IMG/VR virus record: IMGVR_UViG_3300035498_000724
Coordinates: 5,952-69,951 of that record
Reading direction: 5' to 3' (one strand)
DNA: 64,000 nt
DNA from: a virus
Both the position numbers and the translations under genes were made by a program. Under the pieces are notes generated by a model. That model did not search any database. It was given only the letters and a program-made list of their open reading frames with translations, and had not been told where the DNA came from. Shown here in pieces: positions 20,431 to 59,349 of this stretch. The first letter of the stretch is position 1, and each line of letters opens with the position of its first letter.

Positions 20431-20459
20431 ATTATAACACATTGACAACTAGTTGTCAA
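20431..20459 (-). promoter_or_regulatory. sigma-A-type promoter TTGACA-N17-TATAAT embedded in 18-bp palindrome TTGACAACTAGTTGTCAA (upstream of hup)
   Basis: Perfect -35 and -10 hexamers with 17-bp spacing on the minus strand. The -35 lies inside a perfect palindrome. The same element recurs at least 8 times in the window. Confidence 0.6.
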
Positions 20460-20472
20460 GTTAGATAGAAAT

Positions 20473-20739
20473 TTAAAATTCTTTTGTATATAATATTATA
20501 GGAGCACCATCTCCCATATAAGGTAAAGCTCTAAGTGTATTGTATTCAATAAACTCTAAAGCATCTTCGAAAGAAAGACTTTCTTTAATCATTAAATCCA
20601 TAATCATTTTGTCCATATCATAAATCACTCTTTCATCATAAGATAAACCTATGATTGCACTTTCATAAGATGGATTTTCAAACACCTTAATAGGTATATT
20701 ATTTTCTTCTGCGTATTCGCAAATTTCTTCGTAGGTCAT
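20473..20739 (-). CDS. hypothetical protein
   Basis: 88 aa. Confidence 0.35.
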   Translation of the reverse strand: MTYEEICEYAEENNIPIKVFENPSYESAIIGLSYDERVIYDMDKMIMDLMIKESLSFEDALEFIEYNTLRALPYMGDGAPIILYTKEF

Positions 20740-20759
20740 TGTGACGCTCCTTTCTAAAA

Positions 20760-21617
20760 TTATTTTTTGTTCTTCCTTTGCTCTTTTATTTTTTCAATGT
20801 CAATTCCCAAAACTTCATAAGACTCTTTAAAATAATCTATTAAAAATTTAAACTGATTGTCATTCATTAATAATAATTCTTTTTCTGTATCGTGGCGCCA
20901 AGTTCCATATACGCATCCAGCACATCCAGTACGTTTAACATATTGATATACTTCAGGGATTTCGATATTAAATTCTTTATATATTTCGTTTTCTAATTCT
21001 TCTGTTAAGTCCCATAGTGGCGTAAACTTTCCGTTTTTAGAAAGACAACTCGTATATTGTTGCTTCCTTAAAACACTATCTCCAGTTCTTGTTCCTAATA
21101 TTGGTTTTAATCCAGTTTCTTTTTCAAATAGTCTTGCTGGTTCTTTCTTCATATAATGACAACATAAATGAGTTATGTTATGAGCGTTGCCACTTAGAAC
21201 ATAATTTCTTGCTTTCTTAGAAAGTCCATATCCTGTATGATAAGTCCCATTTATTTTTTCTAAAATTGTTTTACTAGGCTCCTTACCTTTTCTTATCGCA
21301 TTTTGATAATAATAAATATAGAAGTCTTGTTCTTTGCTAAAACAAGGAATGCCGTATTTTTCTTTTATCTCAAATGGTTTTAATACAGGATATAGAACTC
21401 TATCTGAATTTTTATAAATCCTATCTCTTATTTCTGGATGCTCCATATAAGTATTAATTCCAACAATAGTTACTCCTTCTATATGAGTATATTCTTTTAT
21501 AAACCAATATAGTAAATGGCTATCTTTCCCTCCTGAATAAGAGAGGTAATACTCATTAGGATTTATTTTAGCAAATTTTGTTTTAAGGTCTTCTAGGTAA
21601 AATTCTGCGTTAGTCAA
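20760..21617 (-). CDS. PP-loop ATPase of the PAPS-reductase/TtcA/DndC-like family
   Basis: SGGKDS PP-loop (YLSYSGGKDSHLLYW) plus Cys clusters (HLCCHY, RTGCAGCVYG). 285 aa. Confidence 0.6.
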   Translation of the reverse strand: MTNAEFYLEDLKTKFAKINPNEYYLSYSGGKDSHLLYWFIKEYTHIEGVTIVGINTYMEHPEIRDRIYKNSDRVLYPVLKPFEIKEKYGIPCFSKEQDFYIYYYQNAIRKGKEPSKTILEKINGTYHTGYGLSKKARNYVLSGNAHNITHLCCHYMKKEPARLFEKETGLKPILGTRTGDSVLRKQQYTSCLSKNGKFTPLWDLTEELENEIYKEFNIEIPEVYQYVKRTGCAGCVYGTWRHDTEKELLLMNDNQFKFLIDYFKESYEVLGIDIEKIKEQRKNKK

Positions 21618-22170
21618 TCATATTACCAGCTAATACAGCTTTGCCTTCTTCTAAAGATTTTTTGCAAGAAATCCAACGTTGATTGTCTGAACCCGCCCAT
21701 TTAAGTTTTAAGTTCTTTTTTTCTTCAACGAATTGACCACAAACTATATAATCTACATAATTTAATATTTCTCTTTTGTGTAAGTCATTGTAAATGTCTT
21801 CAAATTCATAGCCTGACCAAAGCCATATGTTTTTATCTTTTGTCGTTGCATTTATTTTGAATGCTATAGCAATTTCTTTTACCGTATCAAAGTTTTCATC
21901 GCATAAAGGTTCTCCTCCTAAGATAGACAACCCTTTAATTTTGTCATCAGAGCATAAACCAATTAGAGTCTTAAGGGTTTCAGGAGTAAATTCCTTACCG
22001 CCCTCAAAATTCCAAGTTTCTGGATTGAAACAACCTTTACAATGAAAATGACAACCTTGTACGAATATAGATACTCTGACACCAGAGCCATTTGAAATAT
22101 CCATTTTTCGTATTTTGTTATATCTCATAGTTATTTCTCCTTTACAAAATGACCGCAACACCAATCCCAA
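21610..22170 (-). CDS. nrdG: anaerobic ribonucleotide reductase activating protein (radical SAM)
   Basis: CxxxCxxC motif (GCHFHCKGCFN). 186 aa. Adjacent to nrdD. Confidence 0.8.
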   Translation of the reverse strand: MGLVLRSFCKGEITMRYNKIRKMDISNGSGVRVSIFVQGCHFHCKGCFNPETWNFEGGKEFTPETLKTLIGLCSDDKIKGLSILGGEPLCDENFDTVKEIAIAFKINATTKDKNIWLWSGYEFEDIYNDLHKREILNYVDYIVCGQFVEEKKNLKLKWAGSDNQRWISCKKSLEEGKAVLAGNMID

Positions 22171-22436
22171 TAATCATACTTTTCTCTAACGTCATCTTTA
22201 TAATATTCTAGTTTAGATGGGATATATTCAAACACTTTTTCTATTGTTGAACCATTAGAAGATTTATATGTAAATCTTTTAATTCCGTGTTTATATATAA
22301 ACTCTTCCATTTGCCATTTTTTTGCAAATTTTAAATAAAAAACGTCAGTAGAAAGGTTGTTATAATAAAGGTAATAGGCTTTATCTTTATGTTCAGTAAG
22401 TGGTTTAAAATCACTTCTCATAATAATTTCAGCCAT
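22131..22436 (-). CDS. hypothetical protein
   Basis: 101 aa. Confidence 0.35.
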   Translation of the reverse strand: MAEIIMRSDFKPLTEHKDKAYYLYYNNLSTDVFYLKFAKKWQMEEFIYKHGIKRFTYKSSNGSTIEKVFEYIPSKLEYYKDDVREKYDYWDWCCGHFVKEK

Positions 22437-22438
22437 TT

Positions 22439-58266: not shown

Positions 58267-58335
58267 CTCAAAATATAAAATTAATAACATATTGACGCCT
58301 TCGCGTATGGACTCTAAAATTGCCCACATAGCTTT
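58267..58335 (-). promoter_or_regulatory. conserved CRISPR leader module (array 3)
   Basis: CTCAAAAT..GACGCCTTCGCGTATGGACTCTAAAATTGCCCACAT. The hairpin is ACGC-CTTC-GCGT: same CTTC loop with a covarying stem. Confidence 0.55.
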
Positions 58336-58347
58336 TGCTATCTTTAT

Positions 58348-58715
58348 TGGTGGAGCTGAGGGGAGTTGAACCCCTGTCCAAATTAAAATATTAAATAATC
58401 TTTCTACAAGTTTAGTTTATTGTTCATCTTTATTTTATAAACTACAATAAAACAAAAGTTTATAAAATGCCTTCTATGTTTGAGCTATAGCTTCATCTCA
58501 AAAAGCAATGTCCGAAGCGCAGTTACTTTAAATCGACACCTATAAAAAGTCAGTAACCTACCTTATATAGATGATAGCTGACTAGGCAGCTATTAATTCT
58601 GCATTTTTGTTTGCGTTTATATTTATTGGAATCCTTTTATAGTAGACCTCGGATTACCATTCTACTACTTGCTTAATCATCTTTCTCTTAATCTGTCGAA
58701 ACCAAATACAACCCC
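58348..58715 (-). ncRNA. ssrA: tmRNA (ssrA)
   Basis: Minus strand starts GGGGTTGTATTTGGTTTCGACAG (compare the canonical GGGGCTGATTCTGGATTCGACGG). It ends with the T-arm GGGGTTCAACTCCCC followed by CAGCTCCACCA. The internal reading frame GCA AAC AAA AAT GCA GAA TTA ATA GCT GCC TAG gives the tag ANKNAELIAA-stop. 368 nt. Confidence 0.85.
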
Positions 58716-58750
58716 ATATTAAATGTTTAAAAATATTTATTTAGTTCTTA

Positions 58751-59244
58751 CTTTTAGTACTGTACTAAGTTAAATAGCATTAAAACAATGTATCCAATCT
58801 ATTTTGATTGTGTTATCTTTTAGTACTGTGTTAAATCCAACAACACTAACATAGCAATAAAATAGTGTTGTAGTATAATTGTCTTTTAGTATTGTGTTAA
58901 ACTGAATAGTATTAAAACGTTAGCAAATGGAATAATAGTTTCTTATTACTTTTAGTACTGTGTTAAATTAAATAGTATTAAAACATAATTTACTTTACTA
59001 TGGTTTTGCTGTGCTTTTAGTACTGTGTTAAATTGAATAGTACTAAAACAGCATAGTCAAGCTTGATTAAATCGAACTTTTAGTACTGTGTTAAATTGAA
59101 TAGTACTAAAACTGCTTTGTTGCTATAAACTTTTTTTCCACTCTTTTAGTACTGTGTTAAATTGAATAGTACTAAAACAGAAGAGTTATATGTTGAATTA
59201 GACGAGGACTTTTAGTACTGTGTTAAATTGAATAGTACTAAAAC
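58751..59244 (-). CRISPR. CRISPR array 4 (repeat CTTTTAGTACTGTGTTAAATTGAATAGTACTAAAAC as plus strand)
   Basis: Eight repeats starting at 58751, 58817 (3' half degenerate), 58883, 58949, 59014, 59077, 59143 and 59209. Spacers of 30, 30, 30, 29, 27, 30 and 30 nt. The repeat has an 11-bp terminal stem, CTTTTAGTACT/AGTACTAAAAC. Confidence 0.85.
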
Positions 59245-59310
59245 CTCAAATTATATTATTTAACACATCCGCGGCTTCCCGCACAGACTCTAAAATTGCC
59301 TGTATATTTA
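59245..59310 (-). promoter_or_regulatory. conserved CRISPR leader module (array 4)
   Basis: CTCAAATTATATTATTTAACACATCCGCGGCTTCCCGCACAGACTCTAAAATTGCCTGTATATTT. Confidence 0.6.
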
Positions 59311-59320
59311 CTATAAATAC

Positions 59321-59349
59321 ATTATATCATAAATTGTATTGTTTGTCAA
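59321..59349 (-). promoter_or_regulatory. TTGACA-N17-TATAAT promoter reading into array 4 leader
   Basis: Minus strand reads TTGACAaacaatacaatttatgaTATAAT, immediately upstream (minus sense) of the leader module. Confidence 0.55.

Follow-up and report, generated by a model that had tools for sequence, protein, structure and literature searches.

What is the function of a palindrome that recurs inside the consensus promoters of a large phage? The question is raised by a 64,000-nt stretch of DNA (hereafter the window; positions 5,952 to 69,951 of the IMG/VR virus record IMGVR_UViG_3300035498_000724), in which a symmetric site, TTGACAACTAGTTGTCAA in its 18-bp extended form, is repeated within a block of minus-strand genes. 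In a preliminary description of the window, the site had been taken as the target of a single dimeric regulator that gates the whole minus-strand early and middle regulon. The observation proved real but over-generalised, and the operator reading is well supported by sequence comparison between related phages: we consider it fairly probable that the site is the operator of a dimeric repressor, located in early and middle promoters.

A search with TTGACAACTAGTTGTCAA, allowing up to three mismatches and using dinucleotide shuffles as control, returned nine copies (20442, 27619, 27652, 43850, 43925, 50484, 54257, 54765 and 55344, with 0–3 mismatches), compared to 0.03 expected in the shuffles. 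All copies listed previously were thus recovered, two of them shifted by one base (43849 to 43850 and 54256 to 54257), and apart from the CRISPR (clustered regularly interspaced short palindromic repeats) repeats the palindrome was the most over-represented 12-mer of the window. All nine copies are intergenic and lie within the minus-strand gene block, and the half-site TTGTCAA is found in eight of them, with 50484 alone reading TGTCGAT. Six copies (20442, 43925, 50484, 54257, 54765 and 55344) form TTGACA-17-TATAAT on the minus strand, matching the consensus at 12 of 12 positions. In the first three of these and in 54257, the TATAAT is preceded by TGTGn or TATGn, while 54765 has TGTAT and 55344 has no such element; the TRTG motif is also part of a promoter consensus drawn from 33 sites in six genomes. 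Promoters of this quality should need no activator. The claim that every copy supplies a −35 hexamer spaced 17 bp from TATAAT did not hold for the remaining three (27619, 27652 and 43850), which lack a −10 hexamer at usable spacing and are situated between an upstream promoter and a ribosome-binding site (RBS). Perfect 12/12 promoters were found ten times on the minus strand and once on the plus strand, against a chance expectation of about 0.1 by a rough back-of-envelope estimate. As described earlier, the promoters coincide with operon starts, and several directly follow the hairpin of the preceding operon. Five palindromic promoters share the upstream box TT(T/C)CAC(C/T)TAAC and the start sequence ATATATAG, the latter seen downstream of the −10 hexamer in the window and in relatives. 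A bidirectional promoter was ruled out, as a plus-strand −10 hexamer is present at none of the sites.

The position, half-sites and target genes of the palindrome are conserved across a clade of related phages. These relatives were found via a promoter pattern and via the Gp157-like protein, whose homologues, 51–84% identical, lie on metagenomic contigs as long as 198 kb; related-locus searches with single proteins (Gp157 and a RecD-like protein) gave no matches. A scan of IMG/VR with AACTTGACAANNNNTTGTCA yielded three contigs with multiple matches (193,100, 197,687 and 127,869 bp), all on one strand within each contig. The relatives of ~193–198 kb comprise ERZ27286968 k141_1173053 (ENA), ERZ14235896 NODE_12, IMGVR_UViG_3300045988_152035 and IMGVR_UViG_3300012979_000001. 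In the three syntenic loci that were compared, L050 (78%), L051 (66%) and L052 (55%), TTGACAA-N4-TTGTCAA with up to two mismatches was found 5, 5 and 6 times, respectively, against 0.2–0.5 in shuffles, and approximately 20 such matches were present in ~57 kb sampled of one 193-kb IMG/VR contig. All relatives carry TTGACAA-N4-TTGTCA(A/G) within promoters of the form TTTCCAYYTRAC-[site]-TRTGnTATAAT-ATATATAG. The sites stand at the same places and before the same genes as in the window while the surrounding DNA drifts, and the half-sites are conserved where flanking protein identity is only 51–78%. Alignment of the region upstream of Gp157 from four phages revealed conserved blocks corresponding to the upstream box, a first palindrome (O1), the −10 hexamer, the start, a second palindrome (O2), TTATGTAAAC and the RBS, whereas the hairpin-forming stretch between them varies. 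Sites are likewise kept by orthologues of the HU gene, open reading frame (ORF) 27234, Gp157, ORF 53182 (in five relatives) and ORF 48256. Orthologues of the HU gene, Gp157 and ORF 27234 have two sites each, the latter for example in IMG/VR contig 152035 (locus L078), and those of the HU gene combine one site in the promoter with a second one before the RBS.

Comparison of the individual sites made it possible to separate the palindrome from the promoter that it overlaps. Across 34 promoter-type sites, none of the twelve half-site bases varies; T occupies position 1 in 32 of them, and position 18 is A, G, C or T in 13, 17, 3 and 1 sites, respectively. Among intergenic leader copies without a −10 hexamer, position 1 can be A, G, C or T. 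This position is consequently constrained only in sites that also serve as a −35 hexamer, so that the constraints of promoter (TTGACA) and operator are separable, and the operator proper would be the 16-bp sequence TGACAA-N4-TTGTCA. The central 4 bp vary between CTAG, ATAG and TTAG in the window, ATAG, ATAC and AGTA in L050, and ACCT, AGGT and AGAT in L052 and the IMG/VR contigs; the presence of both ACCT and AGGT shows that the site occurs in both orientations. In four loci chosen independently of the motif, 16 of 27 near-consensus promoters have TTGTCA at +12 to +17, counted from the first base of the −35 hexamer, where base composition predicts 0.7%. The copies without a −10 hexamer, together with a site that abuts the RBS in a further relative (L056, position 941), indicate that the palindrome is not merely promoter sequence. 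The part of the single-regulator proposal that stands is thus a separate unit, symmetric over the −35 hexamer and spacer, with half-sites that are conserved even where no −10 hexamer is present.

In the mechanism that we favour, the operator would be built into sigma-A-type promoters in such a way that its left half-site is the −35 hexamer itself and its right half-site fills the spacer, at approximately −24 to −18. One symmetric dimeric protein, most probably encoded by the phage, would bind the operator and shut sigma-A RNA polymerase out of otherwise maximal promoters by competing with region 4 of sigma-A. The extra copies at 27652, 27619 and 43850 may each take up a further dimer, the second or third, which would form a roadblock or bind cooperatively. 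The predicted regulon would consist of early and middle genes, namely those for HU, for Gp157 together with the phage sigma factor and the replication module, for nucleotide metabolism, for RNA repair and for small early proteins, in addition to CRISPR array B with one small RNA. Use of the −35 hexamer as an operator half-site would be compact and portable, and potentially gives a tight switch on Gram-positive promoters of maximal strength. The sites can also be read as a map of early transcription units in a clade of ~195-kb phages of low-GC (guanine-cytosine) anaerobes, and the operator sequence offers a direct bait for the master regulator.

Several points weigh against this mechanism. No helix-turn-helix (HTH), MarR, ribbon-helix-helix or recombinase-like/integrase domain was found with Pfam and PHROGs in essentially all of the window ORFs, also at a permissive E-value, and the phage HTH proteins that the preliminary description put forward as candidates are accordingly not recognisable among them. 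With nine MarR proteins of bacterial loci that carry the 18-mer as queries, tblastn and hmmsearch gave no match below E = 0.4, either in the window or across 18 related loci (~95 kb). Moreover, the window in which a regulator was sought makes up about one third of a ~195-kb genome. Pfam scans of 116 and then 71 ORFs flanking ~28 sites in the relatives returned no HTH among the top 25 families listed per scan; the negative applies to ORFs of up to 175 amino acids (aa), and beyond the listed families weak matches, or a regulator among ORFs of 176–450 aa, may be hidden. Furthermore, repression is preferred over activation from geometry alone, and the spacing between O1 and O2 (75, 78 and 68 bp) does not keep the helical phase, which makes a rigid loop unlikely. 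Two further searches bear on the binding protein: comparison of 22 concatenated unknown ORFs with the PDB by phmmer, which is probably insensitive, gave no matches, and the product of ORF 27234-27587, with two sites in its leader, was found to be DUF5405-like with faint similarity to AP2 and integrase-arm folds. A literature search for the half-site strings retrieved only CopY-type cop boxes, in which the spacing is different.

One alternative is that the site is read by a transcription factor of the host, MarR-type, Rex-like or Spo0A-like, so that lytic development would pause in a particular host state. This would be in line with the lack of a phage DNA-binding protein near the nine window sites, and of any among the families listed near the ~28 sites in relatives, while a conserved host factor could explain why the half-sites are invariant down to ~52% protein identity. 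The identical 18-mer is, in addition, a chromosomal MarR-associated site in many bacteria, the Rex site has the same 7-4-7 layout (TTGTGAA-N4-TTCACAA), and Spo0A control of lytic-phage early promoters is documented (PMC2731898). However, the invariance of the half-sites is already explained by their overlap with the −35 hexamer, the MarR loci belong mostly to high-GC Proteobacteria and not to the likely low-GC Gram-positive host, two central bases differ from the Rex half-site, and TTGTCAA is without the G5 of the 0A box (PMC3485338). A host factor appears unlikely. It is less plausible still that there is no separate regulator and that the palindrome is part of a promoter family, either as a duplicated cassette or as a spacer that tunes promoter strength. 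The conserved unit does exceed the palindrome, TTTCCACCTAAC ... TRTGnTATAAT ATATATAG, and spacer conservation is seen in a second promoter class too (TTGACAAATCTTTCAGCTTAT, upstream of the polymerase gene of three phages). Yet both half-sites are kept in the copies without a −10 hexamer (27619, 27652, 43850 and L056 941), they are fixed while centre and flanks drift, equally perfect promoters exist without the palindrome, and position 1 is free where the site is not a promoter, as separate constraints predict.

Two other explanations concern the nature of the binder and the molecule in which the palindrome acts. The phage HU-like protein (20024-20302, assigned by Pfam) might act like TF1 of Bacillus phage SPO1, which binds at the promoters of early genes and lowers their transcription. 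Among recognisable DNA-binding genes other than that of the sigma factor, only the HU gene is consistently tied to the sites, and its own promoter has a perfect site (two sites in relatives), as autoregulation predicts. The protein is nevertheless a canonical HU, with best PDB matches to bacterial HU at E 1e-28 and to TF1 at only 1e-11, and HU/IHF proteins bind ~35 bp via the minor groove rather than 16–18-bp major-groove palindromes, which renders this binder very improbable. The palindrome could also function when folded into a hairpin (stem of 7 bp, loop of 4 nt) in RNA or in a single strand, for instance as a processing or stability signal in read-through transcripts. The leader copies at 27652, 27619 and 43850 are indeed transcribed, and several variants are G-U compatible. 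On the other hand, each of the six promoter copies precedes the start that it would serve, several of them just past the hairpin of the previous operon, the outer pair is often broken (TTGTCAC, TTGTCAT, ATGACAA, CTGACAA), and the half-sites never vary, with zero compensatory double changes. A hairpin function is thus scarcely credible.

The closest known analogue of the phage site is the SPBRE of the Bacillus subtilis prophage SPbeta, which is present at approximately ten early promoters and is bound by the master repressor MrpR (YopR) (PMC10516654). In both cases a short inverted repeat, which is imperfect in SPbeta, recurs at the intergenic promoters of early operons in a large phage, that of SPbeta being a Firmicute one, and both show the same layout: in SPBc2, the SPBRE is located in the −35/−10 spacer (yonP, yorE), before the RBS (yopM, yopV) or twice per promoter (yonX), and also between the −10 hexamer and the RBS at yonX, yopM and yopV. 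The two phages also have related replication modules: that of the window has the gene order of Clostridium botulinum phage c-st, where the genes are annotated as homologues of SPbeta YorF-YorL. In contrast, the SPBRE sequence derived from SPBc2 (AAATACAAAnAATATGTATA) is unrelated to TGACAA-N4-TTGTCA, and the −35 hexamer does not serve as an SPBRE half-site. MrpR is a protein with a tyrosine-recombinase fold, and none such was seen among the window ORFs; the binding protein is probably a different one. A repressor operator inside early promoters is a familiar kind of phage switch, and it is the unstudied phage group in which it would occur that is new.

Other dispersed sites share some of these properties. 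For two looser parallels, the P1 C1 operators and the stoperators of mycobacteriophages L5 (gp71) and Bxb1 (gp69), one repressor acts on many sites, some of which overlap promoters while others in transcribed leaders block elongation, and three window copies likewise lie in leaders. The P1 C1 sites and stoperators are asymmetric, and the stoperators orientation-dependent, whereas the phage site is symmetric and confined to intergenic leaders and promoters; its asymmetric centre was found in both orientations in L052 and the IMG/VR relatives. MarR-family operators resemble it as symmetric 16–18-bp sites overlapping the −35 hexamer, and the identical 18-mer is found at MarR_2 genes, but no MarR homologue was found either in the window or in those regions of the relatives that were sampled. 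The 0A boxes of Spo0A work as direct, not inverted, repeats, and the arrangement in the phage is inverted. Within the 0A box (core TGTCGAA, with G2, C4 and G5), a change of G5 lowers the affinity of Spo0A ~10-fold (PMC3485338), and the phage half-site TTGTCAA is without this contacted base. In lytic phi29-family phages, host Spo0A controls the early promoters, so that lytic development can be suppressed (PMC2731898); in this respect the two cases are alike, as regulator sites stand at strong early promoters in a phage of a Gram-positive host.

The exact 18-mer was scanned in IMG/VR, JGI metagenomes and GTDB genomes, and it occurred in 39 unrelated contigs with one copy each; no relatives of the phage were recovered by these scans. 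In at least ten unrelated contigs, many of them with 55–69% GC, TTGACAACTAGTTGTCAA lies 2–34 bp from the start of a MarR_2 gene and sometimes forms a TTGACA-17-TACAAT promoter, and in one further contig the 18-mer has an XRE repressor gene on one side and a TTGACA-17-TATACT promoter on the other. GTDB gave 13 exact matches, of which the only one near Firmicutes was a single copy in an Izemoplasmatales metagenome-assembled genome. The position of the 18-mer beside MarR_2 and XRE genes suggests that proteins reading this sequence probably exist, and by analogy a winged-helix dimer is a fair guess for the binder of the phage site. Binding by the MarR_2 proteins of the bacterial loci is suggested by adjacency, and the shared 18-mer may be convergent because a mirrored −35 consensus gives this palindrome. 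As a separate observation, nine loci (L004, L005, L009, L012, L020, L022, L035, L038 and L039) have TTGACAACTAGTTGTCAA 2–34 bp upstream of genes of one MarR_2 subfamily (motif ...FRLNG.L...G..L....GL(T/N)SARWQVLGA...), among others in Burkholderia and Chromobacterium. Further upstream there is often another, degenerate copy, and the 18-mer is probably the autoregulatory operator of this subfamily.

Not all strong promoters of the minus strand carry the palindrome, and the claim that the whole regulon is gated could thus not be upheld: the promoters at 59637, 59349, 34929 and 27748 are strong yet without the site (Table 1). At promoter 27748, the common upstream box (TTACACCTAAC) and the common start (ATATATAGA) are both present, and the counterpart of promoter 34929 in L052 is palindromic. 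The tmRNA (transfer-messenger RNA) promoter of L050 is likewise without a site, and the second promoter class, with the conserved spacer TTGACAAATCTTTCAGCTTAT, stands before the polymerase gene in three phages. Promoters 59637, 59349 and 34929 would escape control by the repressor, and the split between operator-free and operator-bearing promoters predicts the tmRNA, CRISPR array C and a 61-aa Cys-rich protein as escapees.

Table 1. Positions of operators, promoters and other features in the window
Feature	Position	Strand	Context
Promoter + operator, before HU-like gene	20431..20471	-	−35 20459-20454; −10 20436-20431; perfect palindrome 20442-20459; upstream box TTTCTATCTAAC 20460-20471
Operator-only copy CTGACAATTAGTTGTCAA	27619..27636	-	33 bp from copy 27652, ~20 bp before RBS, no −10
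Operator-only copy TTGACAAATAGTTGTCAA	27652..27669	-	5′ leader of ORF 27234-27587, past stable 5′ hairpin
Perfect consensus promoter, no palindrome	27720..27759	-	−35 27748-27743; −10 27725-27720
TTGACA-17-TATACT promoter, no right half-site	34901..34929	-	before DNA polymerase III alpha gene
Operator O2 ATGACAAATAGTTGTCAA	43850..43867	-	75 bp downstream of O1; followed by TTATGTAAAC and Gp157 RBS; Gp157 gene 43262-43813; conserved in L050, L051, L052 and IMG/VR contigs
Promoter + O1, before Gp157/sigma-factor/replication operon	43914..43953	-	palindrome 43925-43942; −10 43919-43914; box TTCCACCTAAC 43943-43953
Promoter + operator	50473..50512	-	before ORF 48812-50437, RNA-repair (Pnkp/RNA ligase) and UvrD genes; directly 3′ of hairpin and T-run
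Promoter + perfect operator	54246..54285	-	~250-nt 5′ leader, then ORFs 53507-53995 and 53182-53523
Promoter + perfect operator	54754..54793	-	before 94-aa acidic ORF 54420-54704
Promoter + degenerate operator TTGACAATTAGTTGTTGA	55333..55361	-	before small hairpin RNA, then 64-nt leader and CRISPR array B
Perfect consensus promoter, no palindrome	59321..59349	-	before leader and CRISPR array C, then tmRNA
Perfect consensus promoter, no palindrome	59609..59637	-	before 61-aa Cys-rich ORF 59357-59542
Small hairpin RNA	55262-55325	-	first product of promoter 55361
CRISPR array B	54973-55140	-	
CRISPR array A	~55400-55770	-	
CRISPR array D	57778-58268	-	
CRISPR array C	58747-59244	-	
CAGGCGATTTTATGGTCTGTGCGGGAAGCCGCGGATATGTAATTT elements	55193-55256, 55769-55832, 58275-58338, 59251-59314		one before each CRISPR array
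ORFs of split nuclease	56205-57650 (481 aa), 55832-56290 (152 aa)	-	between arrays D and A
tmRNA	58348-58715	-	between arrays C and D
Cluster of 11 transfer RNAs (tRNAs)	59768-63879	-	adjoins tmRNA

Some conserved features adjoin the sites. The box TTTCCAYYTRAC directly 5′ of the −35 hexamer is found clade-wide and six times in the window against 0.7 expected (among others at 43943-43953, 50502-50512, 54275-54285, 54783-54793 and 27749-27759); it occurs mainly with palindromic promoters and lacks both the A/T-richness of an UP element and a symmetric partner. In all phages, the leader operators of Gp157 and ORF 27234 are followed by TTATGTAAAC (43839-43848; TTATGTTACC at 27642-27651), 17–18 bp after the −35-like hexamer of these operators, O2 sites of the relatives included. 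TTATGTAAAC could be the −10 hexamer of a promoter for the phage sigma factor, but this reading was set aside because the motif shows no enrichment in the window, with 9 copies against 12.9 expected. The ~250-nt leader after promoter 54274 (53996-54240, minus strand) is conserved in L050 (1830-2110). It contains a very short Pro-rich ORF (MFNPPNCNGNSSQLI / MLTPPYGNRNK) as well as a hairpin that shows what looks like a compensatory change (CCAGAAAA...TTTTTGG versus CCTAAAA...TTTTAGG), and is possibly an attenuator or other cis-regulatory RNA. The sole perfect plus-strand promoter (TTGACA-17-TATAAT, 16087) lies in the convergent gap after the endolysin gene and would yield an ~80-nt RNA ending at a strong bidirectional terminator (16165-16210; region 16087-16210).

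The inclusion of CRISPR array promoters in the preliminary description held for one of the four arrays. Array B alone lies behind a palindromic promoter (55361), whose operator copy at 55344, with three mismatches, is the most degenerate one; array C is preceded by the non-palindromic perfect promoter 59349, and no consensus promoter of their own was found for arrays A and D, with the direction of array transcription assumed from the leaders. A conserved element of ~64 nt, CAGGCGATTTTATGGTCTGTGCGGGAAGCCGCGGATATGTAATTT, stands in front of each array and contains a GC-rich hairpin also flagged by a terminator scan; the element may serve as leader, as processing signal or as tracr-like RNA. The CRISPR repeats of 36 nt are internally palindromic (GTTTTAGTACT...AGTACTAAAAG). 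The small hairpin RNA made first from promoter 55361 (GGUGACGAAGG...CCUCUCGCCAC; −13 kcal/mol, z −2.6) has no match in Rfam and is kept in L050 (570-650), where it follows a palindromic promoter at position 537 and no array is present. Two overlapping ORFs in different frames between arrays D and A look like one split Cas12/TnpB-like nuclease, with the motifs GVDWG (RuvC-I-like) and QRDLYAAAKMI (RuvC-III-like). Comparison with NCBIfam gave weak TnpB matches (E 0.009–0.024, far under the cut-offs), and no match was found in Pfam or the PDB. Together with the four arrays, these ORFs may represent a phage-borne type V-like system.

The phage is uncultured and large (~195 kb) and belongs to a clade of phages of low-GC bacteria or anaerobes that nobody has studied; the GC content of the window is ~30%. 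Searches of INPHARED by megablast and tblastn revealed no close phage for the window, the nearest being Clostridium phage Amboise (DNA polymerase III alpha, 47%) and c-st (the 94-aa ORF). No repeated palindrome is present in Amboise or in the 40 kb sampled of c-st. In these 40 kb (L044, 38654-78908), the motif AAAATTAAATTAAA with its shifts occurs 11–13 times and may be a repeated regulatory element of c-st's own. Phages of the clade carry tmRNA, tRNAs, their own sigma factor and RNA-repair genes, and the present member also has the CRISPR arrays and the putative Cas12/TnpB-like gene. In the window, tail and lysis genes, including an endolysin with Amidase_2 and SH3 domains, occupy the plus strand from 1 to 16 kb, and the minus-strand block begins at ~16 kb. 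It contains genes for nucleotide metabolism (NrdD/NrdG, ThyX, SHMT and a dUTPase-like protein) and HU, a replication module (YorF-like, AAA_24, DnaB-like, primase, DHH/RecJ-like, DNA polymerase III alpha and RecD-like) and genes for a small sigma factor, Gp157, a UvrD helicase and Pnkp/RNA ligase, as well as the RNA genes and arrays listed in Table 1.

Several enzymes are split into ORFs of different frames: NrdD, SHMT and DNA polymerase III alpha into three each, and the primase and the RecJ-like protein into two each (22439-24630, 17653-18992, 31472-34850, 36684-37707 and 34940-36669). In relatives, a LAGLIDADG ORF follows DNA polymerase III alpha, and primase and RecJ are split in some and not in others; the splits may stem from mobile introns or inteins, from genuine frameshifts or from indels introduced by assembly. 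The tmRNA (Rfam, 137 bits) encodes the tag ANKNAELIAA, and a GIY-YIG endonuclease gene and a Band_7 gene are interspersed in the tRNA cluster. Finally, the early region contains genes for a class-V aminotransferase (NifS/cysteine-desulfurase-like, 27777-28940) and a PAPS-reductase-like protein (phrog_424, 20760-21617), a pair that recalls sulfur-transfer systems modifying DNA or tRNA.

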